A stretch of 64,000 bases of DNA from a virus, in the IMG/VR virus record IMGVR_UViG_3300023179_000011, positions 135,846-199,845 of that record. One strand, given 5' to 3'. Positions 34,826-43,104 of this stretch are shown piece after piece. Under the pieces are notes generated by a model, which saw nothing but the letters and a program-made list of their open reading frames with translations, searched no databases and was not told where the DNA came from. How positions within the stretch are numbered: the stretch's first letter is position 1; every line of letters starts with the position of its first letter. The translations under genes and the position numbers were made by a program.

Positions 34826-34940
34826 AGTGCAACCGTCGCTTTTGCTAACAATATCTCGCCCATTCTACTGCGCTCTATTCTATTACAAAAGACGAGCCGG
34901 GCAGAAAACTCGTTACGGCGGCCCCAAAACAGTTACCGGA

Positions 34941-34955
34941 GCGCTGATAGCTAAA
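34941..34955 (+). repeat. Junction motif GCGCTGATAGCTAAA (left boundary of the first unit)
   Basis: Inverted 14/15 copy at 35672-35686. Confidence 0.85.
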
Positions 34956-34995
34956 AAAACGCTTAGCAGCCGGAAGTAGTTAACTCCCGGACTGC
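34953..34995 (-). terminator. Intrinsic terminator
   Basis: GCAGTCCGGGAGT/ACTTCCGGCTGC hairpin, then a T7 run. Confidence 0.7.
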
Positions 34996-35031
34996 GTCTG
35001 CGTTCTTCGGCGGAGGTTGTCGATACAACAC

Positions 35032-35565
35032 TCACGCCTCGTCATCGGCATCGTCTTCGTCTGCAGCGCCGTACAACTCTTCTTCGAGTTCACGGCGGTA
35101 GCGGGCGAAACGAGCTTTGACAACTTCGAGACCTTCGGCCGTGGTCTCCTGCACGCCCTTATTGGGGTACAGGCCGCCGTAGCGGGCCGCGCGCTCTTCG
35201 ATGTCTCGCAGGTATCGAACGGCGGCGCGGTAACTGGTGAACGTGTTGTCCCAGTCGCCGTAGCCGTCGTAGTTCGTGCCTTCCGAGATGTAGAAGAAAC
35301 CAGCGCGGTCCTCGACGTCGAGCGCAGCTTCGTAGCTGTCGTTCTCTCCGTCGGCCTTGGCGAGACAGTCATCGCAGTACATCACCGGCTCCCATCCGAA
35401 GGAGTCGGTTTCGCCTTGCGTGATAACCGTCGCCGCGTTTTCGCACTCGCAGTTGTAGCCCTCGCACTTGTCGAAGCTGACAACGAAAGTGCCACCGGGG
35501 CCGGCGCCGAACTGCAGAGTCTTACCAACGTCGGCAGGGATACGGGCCTTGATCGTCAGTGCCAT
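35032..35565 (-). CDS. Acidic hypothetical (early-type) protein with Cys pairs
   Basis: AAGGAG RBS; own promoter and terminator. Confidence 0.75.
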   Translation of the reverse strand: MALTIKARIPADVGKTLQFGAGPGGTFVVSFDKCEGYNCECENAATVITQGETDSFGWEPVMYCDDCLAKADGENDSYEAALDVEDRAGFFYISEGTNYDGYGDWDNTFTSYRAAVRYLRDIEERAARYGGLYPNKGVQETTAEGLEVVKARFARYRRELEEELYGAADEDDADDEA

Positions 35566-35648
35566 GATTATCTCCTTGGATGTATGGCGGTGAGACGGCT
35601 AGAGACACAACACGTGGCTTACCAGCAAAGAGCTAGGCTCCTCACTAA

Positions 35649-35676
35649 ATATACCCGGTTTTAGCCGTTTATTTAG
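35649..35676 (-). promoter_or_regulatory. Putative phage promoter CTAAATA-N17-ATAT, copy 1
   Basis: Identical spacing in six copies, each upstream of a minus-strand unit. Confidence 0.75.
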
Positions 35677-35679
35677 GTA

Positions 35680-38076
35680 TCAGCGCCCGGGCTTGCCGGC
35701 CGTCTGTCTGGTCGCGGCGTCAGCCTTGAAGCCGCCTAACGTCTTCTTGCCGTAGTGCGCAAGCAAGGGCGCAGAGGACGCCAGCATGTACGTGGGTAGG
35801 CCGACGAACGCCGCTCGGCCGCCCTTGAGCTTCATCTGACGCATGAGCTTGGCGCCACGACGAGACGCATCAAACTCAGACGCCAACATAGGCACTGCGC
35901 CGGCTGTACCAGCGATTGCCGAGTTGCGCGAATTAGTTTCGTTGTTCGAGAGAAGCGCTCCGGCCGTGCCCAACGCAATCGACGGCCGGCCGATTCTGTT
36001 TCCATACATTAGCGCTTTGCCGCCCATGTGGTGCCCTAACTCGTGCGCTAATACGCCGGGATTTTTCACATTCCAAGCATGGCCAATCGTCGGTTTTGAT
36101 ATCCCAACCCCCGGATTTGCCGGCGTATAAAACGCGGGACTTTGTCGCACGCTATCCGCAGCTGAGCGCCGCATTCTGTGCGTTATGTTATTCATGATAT
36201 CGCTAAACCAGCGGCCGGTCTGTCGCGGCGGCAGTTTTGGTTCAATCATGCGCGCAACGGCAAGATTATCTGTCACATCTACGCCTTGACTAGTCGCATA
36301 ATTACGGAGTTGCTGCCACGCCTGCGCGCTTTCAGGTGTCGGGGTCGCAGTCATTTCTGGCCGTGCAACACGGTTCATGTACGTGCTTAGCGGCACGCCA
36401 ATCGTTGCCTGTGTCGCGGGCATGCCGCCGAGATACCAACCAACTGAGTGGCCTAAACCGGGCTTAGCGGGTTCTTTTTTTTTAACGTCATCGGCTGCGA
36501 GCTTGGCAAACTGCGCACCAAATTCCATCGCGCTGGAGCACTTGCAGTTCCATTTGCGCAGGGATTTATTAATGCGCGAATCAGGATCAGACTTGGTCTT
36601 GCTGCCGGTGTTTACCCGCTTCATGCCACACATCCGCGAGCAGAAAGAGTTCTGGCGCTTGGCCCGTTCGCCCGTGGGTTTACTCTCAGTCACGGGGGCT
36701 TTTAAGTTCCCGCCTGTCTCACGTTCGTAGCTTTTGCGCCCCTTTTCATTGAGCCCGCCTTCAGGATTCTTACCGGCCGAACGCTGCCAAGCTGGTGTGC
36801 CGGCCATCTTCTCGCCGCCTACAGAGTTAGCCGTCCCAAACGCTGCGTTACCTGTAATATCACCCGTCGAAGACAACGCGCCGTATGAATTAATGGGATT
36901 AGCGTTGGGAGATGAACCGCCGCCAACCGGGGGTAGCTGGCCAGACGGAGCAGGGGAACCCATGTTCGGGGGTTGCGCGGCCGGGGCCTGTGGTTGAGCC
37001 TGCGGCGCCTGTGCTTGCATGCCCATAGGCAGGGGCGTACCCATCGCAGGCATGGCGTAGCGCTTAATTCCGGCGTTTGCAGGCATCCGGGCGGCCTCTC
37101 GGGCCTCCATTTCAGCCTGTTCATTCTCTAGCGCCTGCATAATCGGCTGCGACAAAACAGCAGAAAGCTTCGCCATTAACGGGTTTACTTCACTTTTTGG
37201 CTTTATTTCCGAGTTACATCTTTCGCCCTTGGTTTTGACGACCTTGGGTGGATTTTCACCTGCAACCGTGGGCTTATCACTGGCCGGTTGCTCGATATAC
37301 ACCTCTTTGGTATCCGCTTTCTTGGATAATTTTCTGTAAATATCGAGCGCGACAGAATTTACAGCCGATTGTTTATGAGTTGTCATGGGAGATTTGTTTG
37401 CAAAGGCTGCATTAATAGGAGATTGGCTCGTGGAACCGGTTACATGCGGTAAAAACCCGACAACTCCACCAACGCCAAGGTTCATAACACCGTTTGCGAC
37501 CCCAATACCCTTTTCTAATGTCTCTGTGGGGAGTTCGCCGTGTTGTGTTACATAGCGCTGGGTCTGATTCTGAAGTTGCTGGACGTCTTTATAAGCTTTA
37601 GTAGCTTTGTCGACGGTACTTTTGTTGACGTTTGCGAAAGTCTTGGGAAGTTTTGAGTTTACAAGTTTATCAGAGAGTTCCAGTTGCCGTGCGGACAGGA
37701 CAGCAGCGTTAGGTAGGCGCTTGAGCAACCTGTACGAGCGCATGGGGTTAAAAAACAGCACGCTTTCCCTTGCTGCATTTTGGAACAACTTCTGCAGCAT
37801 CGGTGAACCGACGCGTTTTGATAACATTCCGGCAGCTGCAAGGCCCGCGGTTGTGCCCAGCGTACTTAACCCGGCCGCAGCAGCAGTGTCTCGGGCAGCA
37901 GCACCGGGCGAAAAGTCTGCTTTCTTTGATTCGGGTTCTGGTTCTTTGTCTTTTTTCTCGTCAGACGCGTACATGGGGAGTTTCTTTTTCGTCGGATACT
38001 CGTGCGCCCAGCGTTTGGCGATGTCTGGATGTTCTGCCCAGAGAAATCGACGCTGTTTTTCAGAACGAAATGGCAT
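35680..38076 (-). CDS. Modular virion-type protein with a DUF6321-like module and a C-terminal Zn-peptidase module
   Basis: GKNPEGGLN...FCSRM...RKWNC; LAHELGHH...SEFDASRRG; many K-x-A sites and AMEFGAQFAKLAA. Confidence 0.75.
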   Translation of the reverse strand: MPFRSEKQRRFLWAEHPDIAKRWAHEYPTKKKLPMYASDEKKDKEPEPESKKADFSPGAAARDTAAAAGLSTLGTTAGLAAAGMLSKRVGSPMLQKLFQNAARESVLFFNPMRSYRLLKRLPNAAVLSARQLELSDKLVNSKLPKTFANVNKSTVDKATKAYKDVQQLQNQTQRYVTQHGELPTETLEKGIGVANGVMNLGVGGVVGFLPHVTGSTSQSPINAAFANKSPMTTHKQSAVNSVALDIYRKLSKKADTKEVYIEQPASDKPTVAGENPPKVVKTKGERCNSEIKPKSEVNPLMAKLSAVLSQPIMQALENEQAEMEAREAARMPANAGIKRYAMPAMGTPLPMGMQAQAPQAQPQAPAAQPPNMGSPAPSGQLPPVGGGSSPNANPINSYGALSSTGDITGNAAFGTANSVGGEKMAGTPAWQRSAGKNPEGGLNEKGRKSYERETGGNLKAPVTESKPTGERAKRQNSFCSRMCGMKRVNTGSKTKSDPDSRINKSLRKWNCKCSSAMEFGAQFAKLAADDVKKKEPAKPGLGHSVGWYLGGMPATQATIGVPLSTYMNRVARPEMTATPTPESAQAWQQLRNYATSQGVDVTDNLAVARMIEPKLPPRQTGRWFSDIMNNITHRMRRSAADSVRQSPAFYTPANPGVGISKPTIGHAWNVKNPGVLAHELGHHMGGKALMYGNRIGRPSIALGTAGALLSNNETNSRNSAIAGTAGAVPMLASEFDASRRGAKLMRQMKLKGGRAAFVGLPTYMLASSAPLLAHYGKKTLGGFKADAATRQTAGKPGR

Positions 38077-38289
38077 GGCGTAGCTCGTAGGACAATGAAC
38101 TCAGAGGAAATCCCGGATAGTTGAGCTGAACTAGTCGGAAAAACCTACAAGTTGGTGCGCGCGGCTGTTCCCAAGCTGAATACGCCTCATTTTGGCAGAA
38201 GAAGGCTGAGAAGAAAAGGGTGTTTGAGCGTCTGGTATAGTGGAAGGTGGCTTGGGGAAGAGATTGGACGCTTGGACATGGAGGTTACT

Positions 38290-38619
38290 ATGAAAACGCT
38301 ACAGATTTTGTTATTTAGCCTGTTATGCGTGATAGGGCTGGGATCCGTGCGCGCTGATTCGGTGTTAATGTTCTCGGCTGACTGGTGCAAGTACTGCCAG
38401 ATGGCCAAAAAAGACATGCTGGAGAACAAAGACGAGGTTGATACGTGGGCCGTGGATATTATTGATACCGATGTGAGCAAGGAAATCGTGAAAGAGTACC
38501 GGGTTCGGACTCTCCCGACGTTTATCTATCTAAATGACGCCGGGGAAGAGGTCGACCGGCAGGTAGGCTACAAGGGCTACCGCCAGTTGAAGCGCTGGGT
38601 CGAAAAGAATAAGCGCTGA
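38290..38619 (+). CDS. Exported thioredoxin-like protein
   Basis: GGAGG RBS; signal peptide; FSADWCKYC; TLPTF; stop codon lies inside the junction motif. Confidence 0.88.
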   Translation: MKTLQILLFSLLCVIGLGSVRADSVLMFSADWCKYCQMAKKDMLENKDEVDTWAVDIIDTDVSKEIVKEYRVRTLPTFIYLNDAGEEVDRQVGYKGYRQLKRWVEKNKR

Positions 38620-38627
38620 TAGCTAAA
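38613..38627 (+). repeat. Junction motif GCGCTGATAGCTAAA
   Basis: Exact copy; continues TAAAC as in promoter copies 1 and 3. Confidence 0.85.
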
Positions 38628-38640
38628 TAAACAGCGCCAG

Positions 38641-38666
38641 CCCCGGAGGCACGATTACCTCCGGGG
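38641..38666. terminator. GC-rich hairpin between convergent genes
   Basis: CCCCGGAGG/CCTCCGGGG; no clear U-tract. Confidence 0.55.
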
Positions 38667-38676
38667 CGCGCCGCTG

Positions 38677-39072
38677 TTAGTTTTCCAGCCGGTCGAGCAT
38701 GGCCAGCTGCCGCTCGAAGATCTTCTGCACGAGCGGGAGACGCTTCTTCACGATCTTCTGGACCTGCTCGTTCATCGCCACGAGCATGGCGCCGTTTTCG
38801 GCCGCCCAGCGCGCACCGACACCCGACTCGAAGAACTCGGCGACCAGCTCCAGCTCTTTCGAGGAGAAGCGCTTTGCCAGTTCCTTCTTGAACACGTCAT
38901 TGAACGTGTCCACGGTGAACACCTCCATGAACGCCGTCCGCCACGCGTTCGCGATCGTCGCCGGCATACCACCGACGTTGATCATGTTCTCCACCACCTG
39001 ATCGACCTGTGTGTCGAAGATCTCGGCGGCGGCCATGGCGGTTGCGAGGCGGTCAAACAACTTCTGGTCCAT
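38677..39072 (-). CDS. DUF2059-like helical protein
   Basis: RFSSKELELVAEFFESGVG pattern. Confidence 0.65.
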   Translation of the reverse strand: MDQKLFDRLATAMAAAEIFDTQVDQVVENMINVGGMPATIANAWRTAFMEVFTVDTFNDVFKKELAKRFSSKELELVAEFFESGVGARWAAENGAMLVAMNEQVQKIVKKRLPLVQKIFERQLAMLDRLEN

Positions 39073-39163
39073 CGTACTAACTCCCTATGCCAATTATCGC
39101 TGGCGCGGCAGAGTCGGCTTGATATACAACGCGCACATCAAGTAGTACCGGGCTCTACATGTG

Positions 39164-39191
39164 ATATGCCCGGATTTTGATAGATATTTAG
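39164..39191 (-). promoter_or_regulatory. Putative phage promoter, copy 2
   Basis: CTAAATA-TCTATCAAAATCCGGGC-ATAT. Confidence 0.75.
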
Positions 39192-39195
39192 CCCG

Positions 39196-39254
39196 GCGCT
39201 GATAGCTAAAGGAAGCGCTCGCAGCCCCGGGGCTTGGGCGGCACCCGGGGCTGC
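39196..39254 (-). terminator. 11-bp GC hairpin plus junction motif
   Basis: GCAGCCCCGGG/CCCGGGGCTGC at 39221-39254; GCGCTGATAGCTAAA at 39196-39210. Confidence 0.65.
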
Positions 39255-39296
39255 AATACACTTCCGCGCAGCAGTGGTTACACTACTGCGCACACA

Positions 39297-39953
39297 TCAG
39301 GTCGTCGCCGTGGCGAGGGCCGTGGCGGCCTTCACGGCGCGGCGGCCCTTGCTGTTCTTGATCGCGGCGGCACGGGCCTTGGCGATCTCCTCCTTGTCCA
39401 CACCCGCCGTGAAGAGGGTGTAGCAGGTCTCGGCGAGGACGCCGGCGGTGACCGCGCAGGTGAGCACGCTCACGAGCTTGGCCGTACCGACCGTAGCGCC
39501 AGCAGCGACCGCGAGGCCGCCGATGGTGCTGCCGACCAGCGCGCCGCCGGTGATGGCGACGCCGATCGCCGCGGCGCCGCACAGGATCTTGACGGCGTAG
39601 GTGTTCACCTTCAGCCAGTCCACCGACCGCGTCGAGACGAGGTTGCGGACGTAGCTGAGGGCTTCACGGACCTTGCCGCCGGCGTGACGCATCTGATCGC
39701 CGATCCACGAAAGGACGGAGGCCGCCCACTCGTAGATGGTGTTGAAGATGCGCCCCATGAACTCCCAGACCGCACGACCCACCGACAGCAGGCTGTCGAG
39801 CAGATTGTCGAGCGACTGACCGAGACCCTTGCCGGCCGTCTCGCAGAAGCCGGGCTCGCGCCGAGCGGCACGGGTGACCTTGCCCTTCTTGGCCGTCGCC
39901 TTCACGCCAGCGTGGCCACCGACAGCGGGAGCAGCAGAAACAGCGTTAACCAT
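39297..39953 (-). CDS. Ala-rich membrane protein, very GC-rich coding
   Basis: 218 aa; hydrophobic core with basic ends. Confidence 0.75.
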   Translation of the reverse strand: MVNAVSAAPAVGGHAGVKATAKKGKVTRAARREPGFCETAGKGLGQSLDNLLDSLLSVGRAVWEFMGRIFNTIYEWAASVLSWIGDQMRHAGGKVREALSYVRNLVSTRSVDWLKVNTYAVKILCGAAAIGVAITGGALVGSTIGGLAVAAGATVGTAKLVSVLTCAVTAGVLAETCYTLFTAGVDKEEIAKARAAAIKNSKGRRAVKAATALATATT

Positions 39954-40052
39954 CGCAACCTCTTCTTTCTATAGAGAGGAGTAAAGTTACACCTTACCCG
40001 GGTAACATGCGGGGGTAATCGGCAACACGCCGATACCAGAGGGGGTCACTAG

Positions 40053-40080
40053 ATATACCCGGTTTTTCGGGTTTATTTAG
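40053..40080 (-). promoter_or_regulatory. Putative phage promoter, copy 3
   Basis: CTAAATA-AACCCGAAAAACCGGGT-ATAT; preceded by GCTGATAG. Confidence 0.75.
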
Positions 40081-40083
40081 CTA

Positions 40084-41226
40084 TCAGCCAATCGACCGGG
40101 TCTTGAGCACCAGCTTTTCCTGCGCGGGCCATAACAGCATCTGCTGCATGGTATCCACGCTGGTGACATCCTTAAGCAGCTTGAGAGCTACCTGCGGATT
40201 CACCTGTATTACCTCGGAAGCTGGCTTCTCCTCTTTGCACGCCCGAGATAAATCTTCATACCGTGTGTACGTATCCCACACCCAATCCTCGCCGTTCTCG
40301 GGGTTGTGCTTTTTCAGCTCCCCGGTCACGTAATGATTGGTCTGCACAAGGCCGTGTTTCCTTGTGCGGATGTAGGTATGTTCCCCGGTATGTGTTACGA
40401 CCGCGTGTTCTTTACTCTGCGTACCGACCACGTGCGCGAAGAATGGCACCATGGTTTGCTGCGTACGCAGATGAAAAACAAGCTTTTCGTAACTTGGCAT
40501 TTTGTCGCAGACCGCTCGGACCCGCTGTAACGCCGGCCACGCTTGGAGCAGATCTTTGACAGATGCCGCGGTGTTTGTCACGTATGCAAACATCGCAGAC
40601 AACGATCCCCACCAGCCCGTGTCTGTGCCGTCCTCGTCTTCTTCGTCGACAAGAGACTTCACAATTGGGGCTTGATTGACAACCAACGCCCACTGGGCAG
40701 ACATCGCGCTGACGACGCCCACCATGCCCGCAACGCCCACCGAAGTGTAGCTTTTGCGGCCACGATGAAAGCGAAGCAGCTTGGTGTGCTTGCCAGTAGA
40801 GGGAGGCGTCACCCAGTCCATGTTGCGCACAATGACTGGGGTGGAATTCACATCGAAGCTTGCAGAACTACATCCACAACCGTACATCTCGGCAAGAGAC
40901 GTAAAGTCGTAAATTAAGTTCCCCAGCAGAAGCTTGCCGACAGGGACTTCAGCGTGCCGCGCAATGCACCGAAGTTCCTGCGGATACTCAAGGTCTGTAC
41001 CCGTCAGGATCCAGCCCCCAAGTCGTCCACCGCCGCTTGTCACACTCTTTACGACACTTTTCATGGTGTCAGAAAGGTGCGGCAAGATTTCCTCGTCGAC
41101 ATGGGTTTCCACGTCTTCGAGGATGGACTGGATCGCGTCGCCATTTTGACGAGCGAACCCGGCCCAGCGTTCGTCCGGTGGTTCCTCCAGATCGATGTCA
41201 TGAATCTTCCCGGTGAAAAGTTTCAT
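40084..41226 (-). CDS. Ntn-hydrolase of the acid ceramidase/NAAA type
   Basis: IDLEEPPDERW (alpha part), CSSA...VRNMDW (nucleophile Cys), QTNH. Confidence 0.8.
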   Translation of the reverse strand: MKLFTGKIHDIDLEEPPDERWAGFARQNGDAIQSILEDVETHVDEEILPHLSDTMKSVVKSVTSGGGRLGGWILTGTDLEYPQELRCIARHAEVPVGKLLLGNLIYDFTSLAEMYGCGCSSASFDVNSTPVIVRNMDWVTPPSTGKHTKLLRFHRGRKSYTSVGVAGMVGVVSAMSAQWALVVNQAPIVKSLVDEEDEDGTDTGWWGSLSAMFAYVTNTAASVKDLLQAWPALQRVRAVCDKMPSYEKLVFHLRTQQTMVPFFAHVVGTQSKEHAVVTHTGEHTYIRTRKHGLVQTNHYVTGELKKHNPENGEDWVWDTYTRYEDLSRACKEEKPASEVIQVNPQVALKLLKDVTSVDTMQQMLLWPAQEKLVLKTRSIG

Positions 41227-41576
41227 GACACACCGTCTTTCTTAGACCTCGGCGACAGACCGAAGTCGCTGTCGGCTCCCGGAAACGGCACCGGGATGTT
41301 GAGCTTGCCGCAGCACTGGGCAGCCAACGACTCCAGCCGCTCGATGTAGTCCATGCGGACACGATCGCGCGCGTCGTTCAGCTCTTTCACGCGCGCGATC
41401 GACCCCAGCAGCTTTTTGTTATCTGCTGAGACCTGCTCGATGCGCTCGAACGCCGTGTTGAGTGTGGTGGCGAGGAAGCCGACCACCTTGCCCAGCTCGG
41501 CTACTTTTTCTTCTGTGGACACCGGAGCGTCGGCGGGGAACCACTTGTTGACGTCCGTCTCAAACAGCTGACTCAT
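41223..41576 (-). CDS. Coiled-coil hypothetical protein
   Basis: AAGGAG RBS; heptad pattern. Confidence 0.7.
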   Translation of the reverse strand: MSQLFETDVNKWFPADAPVSTEEKVAELGKVVGFLATTLNTAFERIEQVSADNKKLLGSIARVKELNDARDRVRMDYIERLESLAAQCCGKLNIPVPFPGADSDFGLSPRSKKDGVS

Positions 41577-41650
41577 CGGTCATTCTCCTTAGCCGCGCAA
41601 AGCGGCAAAAAGACACAGAACACCCCGACACACTACCGGGGTACCAGTAA

Positions 41651-41678
41651 ATATGACACGAATTACGCGTCTATTTAG
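41651..41678 (-). promoter_or_regulatory. Putative phage promoter, copy 4
   Basis: CTAAATA-GACGCGTAATTCGTGTC-ATAT. Confidence 0.75.
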
Positions 41679-41683
41679 CTGCC

Positions 41684-41738
41684 GCGCTAATAGCTAAAAA
41701 AAGCGCCCGCAGGCGGAGGTCATACCTACGGGCGCTTT
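41684..41738 (-). terminator. Intrinsic terminator plus junction motif
   Basis: AAAGCGCCCG/CGGGCGCTTT hairpin, T-run, GCGCTAATAGCTAAA at 41684-41698. Confidence 0.75.
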
Positions 41739-41740
41739 GC

Positions 41741-41965
41741 CTACTGGGCCGAGAGGGTGGTCCACTCGCCGCTGTAGGTCTCATCCAACGGATTGATGAT
41801 CCGCGGCTTGGCTGCGTGTGCGACAGGCTTGGCAACTGGGTTAGACGCCGGTACGGGCGCCGTCATCCGGTGCTGCATGTCGCGCCACGCCGGCGACGGC
41901 TGGAGCTTGTCAGAGATCCAACCAATCGCCGCCAGACCACCAAAGATCATGAGGGCCGTGGTCAT
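41741..41965 (-). CDS. Small N-terminally anchored membrane protein
   Basis: AAGGA RBS; TM helix. Confidence 0.65.
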   Translation of the reverse strand: MTTALMIFGGLAAIGWISDKLQPSPAWRDMQHRMTAPVPASNPVAKPVAHAAKPRIINPLDETYSGEWTTLSAQ

Positions 41966-42032
41966 GCTATTTCCTTCCTTTCAATCATGACGGGCAAAGC
42001 GTAATTTTTGGCTTACGCCTATCCGTCACTTA

Positions 42033-42060
42033 ATATGACAGGAAATAGCTGGGTATTTAG
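42033..42060 (-). promoter_or_regulatory. Putative phage promoter, copy 5
   Basis: CTAAATA-CCCAGCTATTTCCTGTC-ATAT. Confidence 0.75.
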
Positions 42061-42061
42061 C

Positions 42062-42145
42062 TCACATCCAGATGATGATGTCGAGGCCCAGATCCTCGTC
42101 TTCTTCGTCGTCTGAGGTAAAGATATCAAAGGCGGCGGCGCACAT
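42062..42145 (-). CDS. 27-aa acidic peptide (not in the ORF track)
   Basis: GGAGG RBS; MCAAAFDIFTSDDEEDEDLGLDIIIWM; TGA stop overlaps AGCTAAATA; perfect TATAAT at 42184-42189. Confidence 0.55.
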   Translation of the reverse strand: MCAAAFDIFTSDDEEDEDLGLDIIIWM

Positions 42146-42280
42146 ATGTACCTCCAGACGACAGGTTATTAAATCGTGTCGCAATTATACGATTTTGATA
42201 ACACGTCCCGAAGCTTAAGAAGTTCGTATGCGTTTTTCTTACAGCTATTTGACGTAAATCTTTGCGCGACAATACGTTAC

Positions 42281-42330
42281 GGCTAATAGCTAAAAAAAAG
42301 GCGCCCAAGACTTTCGTCGAGGGCGCCTTT
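42281..42330 (-). terminator. Intrinsic terminator plus junction motif
   Basis: AAGGCGCCC/GGGCGCCTT hairpin, T-run, GGCTAATAGCTAAA. Confidence 0.75.
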
Positions 42331-42425
42331 CCCAGAGTGCACTGTGGCATGCGGTGTGATATAGGAGGCCGGTCTGAAGAGCCAAAAAACACACCGAAAC
42401 ACCACAGCAACCCCGTTAAGGAGAA

Positions 42426-42519
42426 TACCTCGCTGGGAATTGCACCCAGCCTGCCGCGAGGGTTTAAGCCTCGCTGCCGCGCACCAAACGTGCGCCGCCG
42501 GCAGTGTCTCTAGTGAGGT
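42426..42519 (-). ncRNA. tRNA-like RNA with an expanded D-arm region
   Basis: ACCTC/GAGGT-A end stem; GCGAGG-CTTAAAC-CCTCGC arm; GCTGGG-TGCAATT-CCCAGC T-like arm; extra GCGCAC/GTGCGC hairpin. Confidence 0.6.
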
Positions 42520-42550
42520 GCAACCGCGCGGCCGCGCGGCTTAACTAACC

Positions 42551-42778
42551 CTAGACAGGCTCGAACTCGGCGTCGACAACCGTGTAGCTGTCGAAGTCGT
42601 CGTTCAGGATCGCCGCTTCCGCGGGGATGCACTCGCAGACGCCCAGTGCAAGGCTGCAGTGCAGGCAGCGCTCAGTGTCGACGTCCGGCGGCGCAATCGC
42701 CGCAGCCAACACAAACAGCATGTCCCGGTAGTCGTCCACATTGACCTTCACCGCCGGGTTGTTGCGCGGACCAGCCAT
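42551..42778 (-). CDS. Small Cys-containing hypothetical protein
   Basis: AAGGAGG RBS before MAGPRNN; CLHC...CEC. Confidence 0.65.
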   Translation of the reverse strand: MAGPRNNPAVKVNVDDYRDMLFVLAAAIAPPDVDTERCLHCSLALGVCECIPAEAAILNDDFDSYTVVDAEFEPV

Positions 42779-42964
42779 AATCTCGTCCTCCTTGAAGAGA
42801 AATAAAACAACCGCCGTCTCGTGGCGGCACAACGCTAATGGTCTCTCGCCATTAGACGGCCCCACCTATCACCGGGCAGGGGGTACGGCTGAGGATTGCT
42901 TAGCTCCCACGTAAAACCAGCCCACCTAGTGACTGGCGCGGCAGGAGCTATAGGTCCTCAATAG

Positions 42965-42992
42965 ATATGCCGTGTTTTTGGCAGATATTTAG
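42965..42992 (-). promoter_or_regulatory. Putative phage promoter, copy 6
   Basis: CTAAATA-TCTGCCAAAAACACGGC-ATAT. Confidence 0.75.
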
Positions 42993-42998
42993 CTAGGA

Positions 42999-43044
42999 GC
43001 AGATAGCTAAAAAAAAGCCGGCAGGGGAGCGCACCCCTGCCGAC
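42999..43044 (-). terminator. Intrinsic terminator plus junction motif
   Basis: GGCAGGGG/CCCCTGCC hairpin, T8 run, GCAGATAGCTAAA. Confidence 0.75.
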
Positions 43045-43104
43045 TCTTGGCGAATTAACGAGTCGCCACCCGTGCCGAAGCGACCAACCGGTCGCCAAAA
43101 GAAT

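Follow-up and report, generated by a model that had tools for sequence, protein, structure and literature searches.

What does a short sequence box do when it recurs, in both orientations, between the small genes of a variable phage region, and are genes gained, lost and moved at it? The region considered here lies at 34.9 to 43.0 kb of a 64-kb stretch of DNA (the window, the whole of the sequence analysed), which forms the last 64 kb of the 199,845-bp IMG/VR phage record IMGVR_UViG_3300023179_000011 (CheckV completeness, 98%). Positions are those of the window unless prefixed G000, which denotes coordinates of the whole 199,845-bp genome. An earlier description made from the letters alone (the sequence-only reading) had seen in this region an array of promoter-gene-terminator cassettes bounded by inverted copies of a 13- to 15-bp motif and had proposed that cassettes are exchanged at that motif. 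Comparison with related phages backed such exchange. We consider it probable that window 34.9-43.0 kb is a hyperplastic accessory-gene region of an ~200-kb uncultured lake/freshwater phage clade, and that its box belongs to a regulatory junction, similar to the promoter-early stem-loops (PeSL) of T4-like myoviruses, that would double as a substrate for short-homology recombination.

With up to two mismatches, the box (GCTRATAGCTAAA) matched the window 13 times, a count not attained in any of 100 shuffles and to be compared with an expectation of 2.17. Genome-wide, 10 copies with at most one mismatch were found, 8 of them within window 34.9-43.0 kb, and a reversed control pattern gave 0 matches. 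Every copy listed in the sequence-only reading was present: the plus strand carries exact 13-mers at 34943, 38615, 39198, 41686, and 42282 and a copy with one mismatch at 42999, and the minus strand carries an exact copy at 40076-40088 and a copy with one mismatch at 35672-35684. Two 6-bp palindromes, TAGCTA and AGCGCT, can be read inside the box. Far from being as frequent elsewhere, the box was nearly restricted to the array, both in this genome and in five complete relatives.

The genes of window 20-64 kb are almost all on the minus strand, and the anatomy of the array is therefore described in that direction. The box occurs in two forms. In the R form (six copies), a strong terminator hairpin and a U-run are followed by TTTAGCTATCAGCGC, the last T's of the U-run opening the conserved box. 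A hairpin beside each plus-strand copy, four of them with a U-tract, had been noted before and was borne out by minus-strand folding: a hairpin adjoins all six copies (-28 to -44 kcal/mol), with a U-run of at least 7 at four of the six and weaker, interrupted runs at T2 (UUUAUUU) and T3 (UUCCUUU). In the F form, GCGCTGATAGCTAAATAAA is placed directly 3' of a coding region and runs into a promoter. Its TGA is the stop codon of the 798-amino-acid (aa) gene (35682-35680) and of the 380-aa gene (40086-40084), and in plus orientation the box TGA stops the plus-strand thioredoxin gene (38617-38619); stops in all three frames of the F form (TGA-TAG, C-TAA, and A-TAA) can be read from the sequence. 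A genome-wide weight-matrix scan located R-type boxes in the array and otherwise only at G000:50007 and G000:8136. The stray box at G000:8136 is R-type and follows a hairpin, and a stray F-type box at G000:50014-50026 is located between two minus-strand genes, without a promoter.

The reverse copies had been described as the upstream edge of a promoter, and this agrees with the presence of a promoter-like motif in two parts, CTAAATA-N16-YATAY: all six of its copies are minus-strand copies within the array, and 100 shuffles yielded 0. Its fuller form is AGCTAAATA-N16-yATATy-TAGTGA, with the 3' half of the F box as the upstream element. Promoters that follow a terminator (P2, P4, P5, and P6) keep only (A)GCTAAATA, and the GCTGAT half is therefore not part of the promoter proper. 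The parts combine into a composite junction (hairpin, U-run, R box, 9 to 12 nt, promoter) at 39.2, 41.7, and 43.0 kb and many times in relatives. Every array unit has a predicted promoter of its own, and most have their own terminator. The plus-strand box copies themselves were rejected as promoters because the sequence has no -10 element at the right spacing.

Relatives were found through their proteins, with the 670-aa and 380-aa genes as anchors. Viral contigs yielded four loci with the 670-aa anchor and eight with the 380-aa anchor, mostly on the same contigs and including five near-complete 194- to 205-kb genomes; 48 metagenome loci were obtained with the 380-aa anchor. A scan of viral contigs for an exact 14-mer gave ~90 single matches, evidently due to chance, and was uninformative, and megablast and tblastn searches against sequenced phages gave no match. 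The box array was conserved in 11 further loci of related phage genomes. Each of the five complete relatives has 5 to 8 box copies, 4 to 7 of them per genome clustered within ~5 to 8 kb, compared with 0 to 1 per strand for the control. Box and promoter are near-invariant across eight loci in which the flanks diverge and the anchor proteins are 32 to 55% identical. Across eight related loci, 44 promoter instances have a spacing of exactly 16, with the consensus gctg.taGCTAAATAa..gccaAaa.CcgGgcATATctAgTGa.

Gene-order maps of these relatives revealed a shared backbone with differences at the level of cassettes. Rather than keeping one gene content and order, with breakpoints random to the motif, the relatives differ in both, and the joints of insertions, deletions, replacements, and one block translocation fall inside a box or promoter. 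Both the window and its 98% identical twin, L115, contain the 131-aa cassette (38628-39195), which is absent from the relative L010/L109. The cassette is flanked by direct 15-bp R boxes, and a junction alignment showed that the empty site in L109 is a single R box, the sequence running from the left flank of the window through the box into the right flank. Conversely, an additional 185-aa gene is found in L109 exactly at window 40076-40088, with a direct F box on either side. A block with the thioredoxin and 798-aa homologues is upstream of the 117/380/218-aa block in L106, L108, and L110 to L113, whereas in the window, L115, and L109 its position is downstream; the blastn ends of the translocated block (41678/41684 and 38631) are inside boxes. 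Six loci, which represent at least four distinct genomes, have nothing in the slot that separates the 218-aa gene terminator from the 670-aa core gene. In other loci this slot holds at least five different cargos, a count that is approximate because the crude open reading frame (ORF) caller misframed some GC-rich cargo genes, and each has the order R box, promoter, cargo, terminator, R box. In L112, a hybrid promoter places the crossover in the promoter spacer. These cases also revise the earlier picture of cassettes bounded by inverted repeats: the promoter-gene-terminator units stand, but the two cleanest indels are flanked by direct repeats (R...R or F...F), and an inverted F/R pair simply marks where one transcription unit has its promoter and where it has its terminator.

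A table of the flanks of every box extended this analysis. The terminator of the 74-aa gene is joined through an R box to four different right sides and that of the 218-aa gene to three, the 3' end of the thioredoxin gene has five different terminator partners, and one promoter is found behind four different C-terminal ends of 798-aa gene homologues. A count of all ends of blastn high-scoring segment pairs proved too noisy, owing to divergence fade-out inside genes, and non-collinear junctions and direct junction alignments were used instead. Of 564 non-collinear junction ends, 25% were within 10 bp of a box or promoter, compared with 4.9% of random positions, the pairs not being independent. 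All of the genomes are metagenome assemblies, in which repeats can misjoin contigs, and the rearrangements might accordingly be assembly chimeras at a repeated motif. However, every arrangement was found again in independent samples (window and L115; L106, L011, and L117; L111 and L118; L112 and L119), which makes chimeras unlikely, and the shared identity of 15 to 45 bp is well below expected read or k-mer lengths; we regard this explanation as very improbable.

A second explanation takes the box as purely a gene expression signal (stop codons, part of the -35 region, a terminator element, or a regulator site), with joints coinciding with it through the survival of recombinants that preserve units. 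The box does overlap the stops of three genes, the upstream edge of the promoter, and the U-run, and every array spacer holds a box, such that unit-preserving joints must fall near one. In every case examined at the sequence level, however, the joint is inside the 13- to 15-bp identity; direct boxes flank the inserted units and the empty site is a single box; and P2, P4, P5, and P6 lack the GCTGAT half, which suggests that the full box is not needed for promoter function. On balance, a role in expression only appears unlikely.

We propose instead that the array is built of self-contained transcription units linked by one composite regulatory junction. The junction would comprise an intrinsic terminator, whose hairpin and U-run open into the R box; the phage-specific promoter; and, where the promoter directly follows a coding region, the inverted box in its F form, which would supply the stop codon. 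The 15- to 45-bp repeats would act as short-homology crossover points, given that many copies occur within 8 kb and are common to related phages. Recombination between direct copies would delete, insert (possibly via excised circles), or exchange whole units, and selection would retain the products that are still complete as promoter-gene-terminator units. We infer that general or short-homology recombination, not a dedicated enzyme, does the work.

The sequence-only reading had favored a site-directed system, and a dedicated integron-like or homing-like apparatus was accordingly weighed, in which cassettes would be excised and integrated at the box by a recombinase or nuclease, of phage or host origin, that binds it. 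The box is near-invariant in both orientations across genomes whose proteins share 32 to 55% identity, it contains the two palindromes, its R form has no obvious termination role, and direct boxes flank cassettes much as att sites bound theirs. The genome, moreover, encodes an HNH nuclease, although its gene is far from the array, and many of its proteins have no family match. But the search for an enzyme did not support this part of the earlier proposal: tyrosine recombinases (PF00589) and serine recombinases (PF00239) are absent from six near-complete genomes (this one and five relatives), and an rve-type transposase is absent from this genome, other DDE transposase families not having been searched. 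A RecA-family match marginally exceeded the curated cutoff in the genome. Crossover points, furthermore, occur in R boxes, in F boxes, and in the promoter spacer, and the spacing between R box and promoter varies (9 to 12 nt) among junctions, which rules out a fixed dimer-binding dyad (TTTAGC-N-GCTAAA). Because the crossovers are spread and this spacing is variable, short-homology recombination is favored over a fixed cleavage point, and we consider a dedicated apparatus rather improbable.

A distant clade (380-aa protein, 37 to 41% identity) bears on the same question. Some members have the promoter CTAAATC-N16-CATAT right after the 380-aa homologue, and the fetched loci, which extend as far as 8 kb to each side of that homologue, yielded no 13-mer box or R-type terminator, an absence that again speaks against a dedicated box-based system. 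In L126, L128, L136, L139, and L149, CTAAATC-N16-CATAT-N-GTGAGCGC occurs ~40 nt after the 380-aa homologue and is preceded by a TAG stop in GATAGGCTG. Since this clade keeps the promoter without the box, the promoter class probably predates the array of boxes, and termination in general is unlikely to require an R box. Such a general role was rejected: the R box is nearly confined to the array and is not seen in the distant clade.

Several points weigh against recombination at short shared junctions as the full account. The exchange is deduced from the comparison of assembled genomes, and the promoters and terminators are predicted ones. Many other non-collinear junctions are module changes inside the 798-aa gene and are unrelated to the box. 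For homologous recombination to be efficient, an identity of 13 to 15 bp is short. Because every array spacer holds a box, breakpoints should coincide with boxes to some extent in any case; the argument rests on joints that are within the 13 to 15 bp and not elsewhere in the 100- to 230-bp spacers. The near-invariance of the R box past the U-run is unexplained by known terminator function and could reflect recognition by a protein and a directed mechanism. This conservation beyond the expected RNA 3' end may have one of three sources: recombination may itself have homogenised the box, the box may derive from the one that stops the inverted thioredoxin gene and have spread as the block moved, or a protein may bind it. 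That the box is the recognition site of a phage protein (a new recombinase or nuclease, or the sigma/RNA polymerase machinery) that couples unit boundaries to cassette exchange seems improbable to us. If it were true, the array would serve a virulent jumbo phage as an integron-like platform for gene capture, its built-in adaptor giving incoming genes a three-frame stop and a fresh promoter.

The promoter was further characterized. A scan with the sigma70 consensus picked up 0 of the 6 promoter sites in the array, at which the -35 region is AGCTAAATA. In the weight-matrix scan, the genome had only eight promoters of the class, six in the array and the others at window 50247 and G000:80671; the one at window 50247 heads a tRNA-rich region. 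The genome encodes an RNA polymerase beta subunit (Pfam RNA_pol_Rpb2_6, E = 4e-52, in a 1468-aa frame) and a divergent 273-aa sigma70-family protein (G000:101287-102108, minus strand) that aligns to regions 2 to 4 of RpoD and SigA (E = 1e-5 to 1e-9, below all curated cutoffs). The sigma-like protein escaped Pfam Sigma70_r2; only matches to region 4, NCBIfam, and PDB sequences, all below curated cutoffs, revealed it. In Salmonella phage Arash, polymerase and sigma factor were found in virions (PMC10585845). Because the genome encodes a polymerase and a sigma-like protein, it is a reasonable inference that the promoter class is read by a phage RNA polymerase with the sigma-like factor.

Additional elements were noted next to the promoters. 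Cassettes with unrelated coding regions (177-aa, 122-aa, 103-aa, and 93-aa genes), among them several cargos of the slot before the 670-aa gene, have in common a promoter and an ~75-nt 5' leader (window 35570-35650, minus strand; L112 12030-12100; L113 12025-12095; L108 12000-12070). The leader contains a start-proximal hairpin and then GCTGGTAAGCCACGTGTTGTGTCTCCAGCC, the first hairpin having compensatory changes, and may be a conserved regulatory leader. Direct repeats of GGTAACTGTTTT (two or three copies) are present at window 34895-34940 (minus strand) and at L109 16560-16610, and some relatives lack them. They are between R box 1 and a different conserved motif upstream of the 670-aa gene (TTTTGTAATAGAATAG...GTAGAAT); motif and repeats possibly represent a second promoter class with binding sites. 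Elsewhere, the over-represented words of the whole genome included CCTGTTGCGCC/GGCGCAACAGG (11 copies) and TTTTGATATCA/TGATATCAAAA, which are parts of a TTTTGATATCAAAA-type palindrome (8 copies).

The cargo genes have no known family and, as the sequence-only reading had supposed, proved unrelated to one another by blastp. They are also compositionally distinct, as that reading had suspected: GC content at third codon positions (GC3) is 0.75 to 0.88 in six cassette genes, compared with 0.577 ± 0.071 for the 80 long ORFs of the genome, which is itself rich in proteins without a family match. The 380-aa gene has weak AAT/NAAA (N-terminal nucleophile hydrolase-like) matches. Homologues of the 798-aa gene in L106, L108, L109, and L110 to L113 range from 346 to 869 aa through gain and loss of internal modules, and they have at least five different C-terminal ends, all of which finish in an F box. 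The ~215-nt noncoding stretch at 42336-42550 (minus strand) contained no tRNA according to ARAGORN (41.5-46 kb scanned), and the only Rfam match in the array was a subthreshold ctRNA_p42d match at 42289-42332, located at a terminator and R box 5 and outside that stretch. Coordinates are collected in the table.

Table. Features of the array in window 34.9-43.0 kb, with predicted promoters (P1 to P6) and terminators (T1 to T6); dG is the folding free energy in kcal/mol.
Feature	Position	Strand	Remarks
R box 1	34941-34955	-	U-run, then TTTAGCTATCAGCGC; after 177-aa gene terminator, upstream of 670-aa core gene
Terminator hairpin T1	34956-35010 (approximate limits)	-	dG -28.9
177-aa cargo gene	35032-35565	-	No family; GC3 0.75; promoter and leader common to different cargos in relatives
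F box and promoter P1	35649-35686	-	Box 35672-35686; CTAAATA 35676 to -10 at 35649; TGA stops 798-aa gene
798-aa gene	35680-38076	-	DUF6321 domain; HELGH motif
Thioredoxin-like gene	38290-38619	+	Only plus-strand gene; stop TGA 38617-38619 inside box
R box 2	38613-38627	-	Common to 131-aa gene terminator and 3' end of convergent thioredoxin gene
131-aa cassette	38628-39195	-	P2 39191-39164; gene 38677-39072; weak DUF2059 match; T2 dG -40.1; GC3 0.88
R box 3	39196-39210	-	After T3 (39211-39265, dG -43.6); direct repeat of R box 2
218-aa cargo gene	39297-39953	-	GC 0.685; GC3 0.87
F box and promoter P3	40053-40088	-	Box 40076-40088; TGA 40086-40084 stops 380-aa gene
117-aa (41223-41576) and 380-aa (40084-41226) genes	40084-41576	-	One unit under P4; GC3 of 117-aa gene 0.79
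R box 4, then promoter P4	41651-41698	-	Box 41684-41698; P4 41678-41651; translocation breakpoint versus L009 and L012
74-aa unit	41699-42060	-	P5 42060-42033; gene 41741-41965; hairpin T4 dG -30.9; GC3 0.80
27-aa acidic peptide ORF	42062-42145	-	Stop TGA 42064-42062 adjoins partial box of P5; read from sequence
R box 5	42282-42294	-	After T5 (42295-42335, dG -28.5)
75-aa unit	42336-42992	-	P6 42992-42965; gene 42551-42778; ~215 nt noncoding before T5; GC3 0.84
R box 6 (one mismatch)	42999-43011	-	After T6 (43012-43048, dG -31.2); P6 directly follows

The sequence-only reading had offered PeSL elements and integron cassettes as analogies, and of these the first is apt. In T4-like myoviruses, the joints of gene insertion, deletion, replacement, and displacement fall in or beside PeSL or promoter-middle stem-loop (PmSL) motifs, and degraded half elements occur (Arbiol et al. 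2010, PMC2839356; Comeau et al. 2014, PMC4122927). The array is similar in that a composite element, a terminator stem-loop just upstream of a promoter, recurs (39.2, 41.7, and 43.0 kb), in that its copies are among small variable ORFan genes of a hyperplastic region (8 of 10 boxes and 6 of 8 promoters within 8 kb), in that the joints of rearrangements between relatives are in or beside the element, and in that degraded half elements are found in both; no dedicated recombinase is known for PeSL. The two differ in that the promoter here is not sigma70-like or MotA-type and belongs to a rare class of 8 copies per genome. Here, too, a discrete 13- to 15-bp box is used in both orientations, one fused to a U-run and the other supplying three-frame stops before a promoter; a multisubunit RNA polymerase and a divergent sigma-like protein are encoded by the phages themselves; and the collection of sequenced phage records contained no match to the 380-aa or the 670-aa array protein. 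Mini-circles or deletions of tandem elements during infection are a trait of PeSL, whereas the present array is described from assembled genomes. The array works like PeSL and is not a member of the T4 element family, because neither a sigma70-type promoter nor a T4-like host was found.

The integron analogy did not hold. Integron attC sites are 57 to 141 bp long, with paired core sites ending in GTTRRRY, and the cassettes are promoterless. The array resembles an integron in being a unidirectional series of unrelated small genes with a recurring, imperfect inverted-repeat junction that often contains the stop codon, and in cassettewise gain and loss. However, its cassettes have their own promoters; there is no IntI (PF00589 being the family absent from the genome and five relatives); and the junction is 25 to 45 bp long, with variable spacing, unrelated to attC and without fixed crossover points. 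A transposon or miniature inverted-repeat transposable element with terminal inverted repeats was also rejected: no rve-type or tyrosine or serine enzyme was found (other DDE families were not searched), and the inserted units are flanked by direct copies of the box itself, without any further duplication.

The morons of lambdoid phages, reportedly described by Hendrix, Juhala, and colleagues as promoter-gene-terminator units inserted between conserved genes, offer a further parallel. The 131-aa cassette, with P2, T2 (dG -40.1), a GC3 of 0.88 against 0.58, and an empty site in L109, is such a unit. Morons, in contrast, are scattered single insertions with unrelated boundaries, and here an array has one shared, conserved junction sequence. 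This junction appears unusually compact and well defined: it would end translation in three frames, end transcription, and restart it, and it defines a rare, phage-specific promoter class of ~8 copies per genome. The array would be a place where phages try out new accessory genes, plausibly with host interaction or antidefense functions. Modular shuffling mediated by promoters and terminators, so far described for T4-like phages, would thereby extend to unrelated, uncultured large freshwater phages with their own polymerase.

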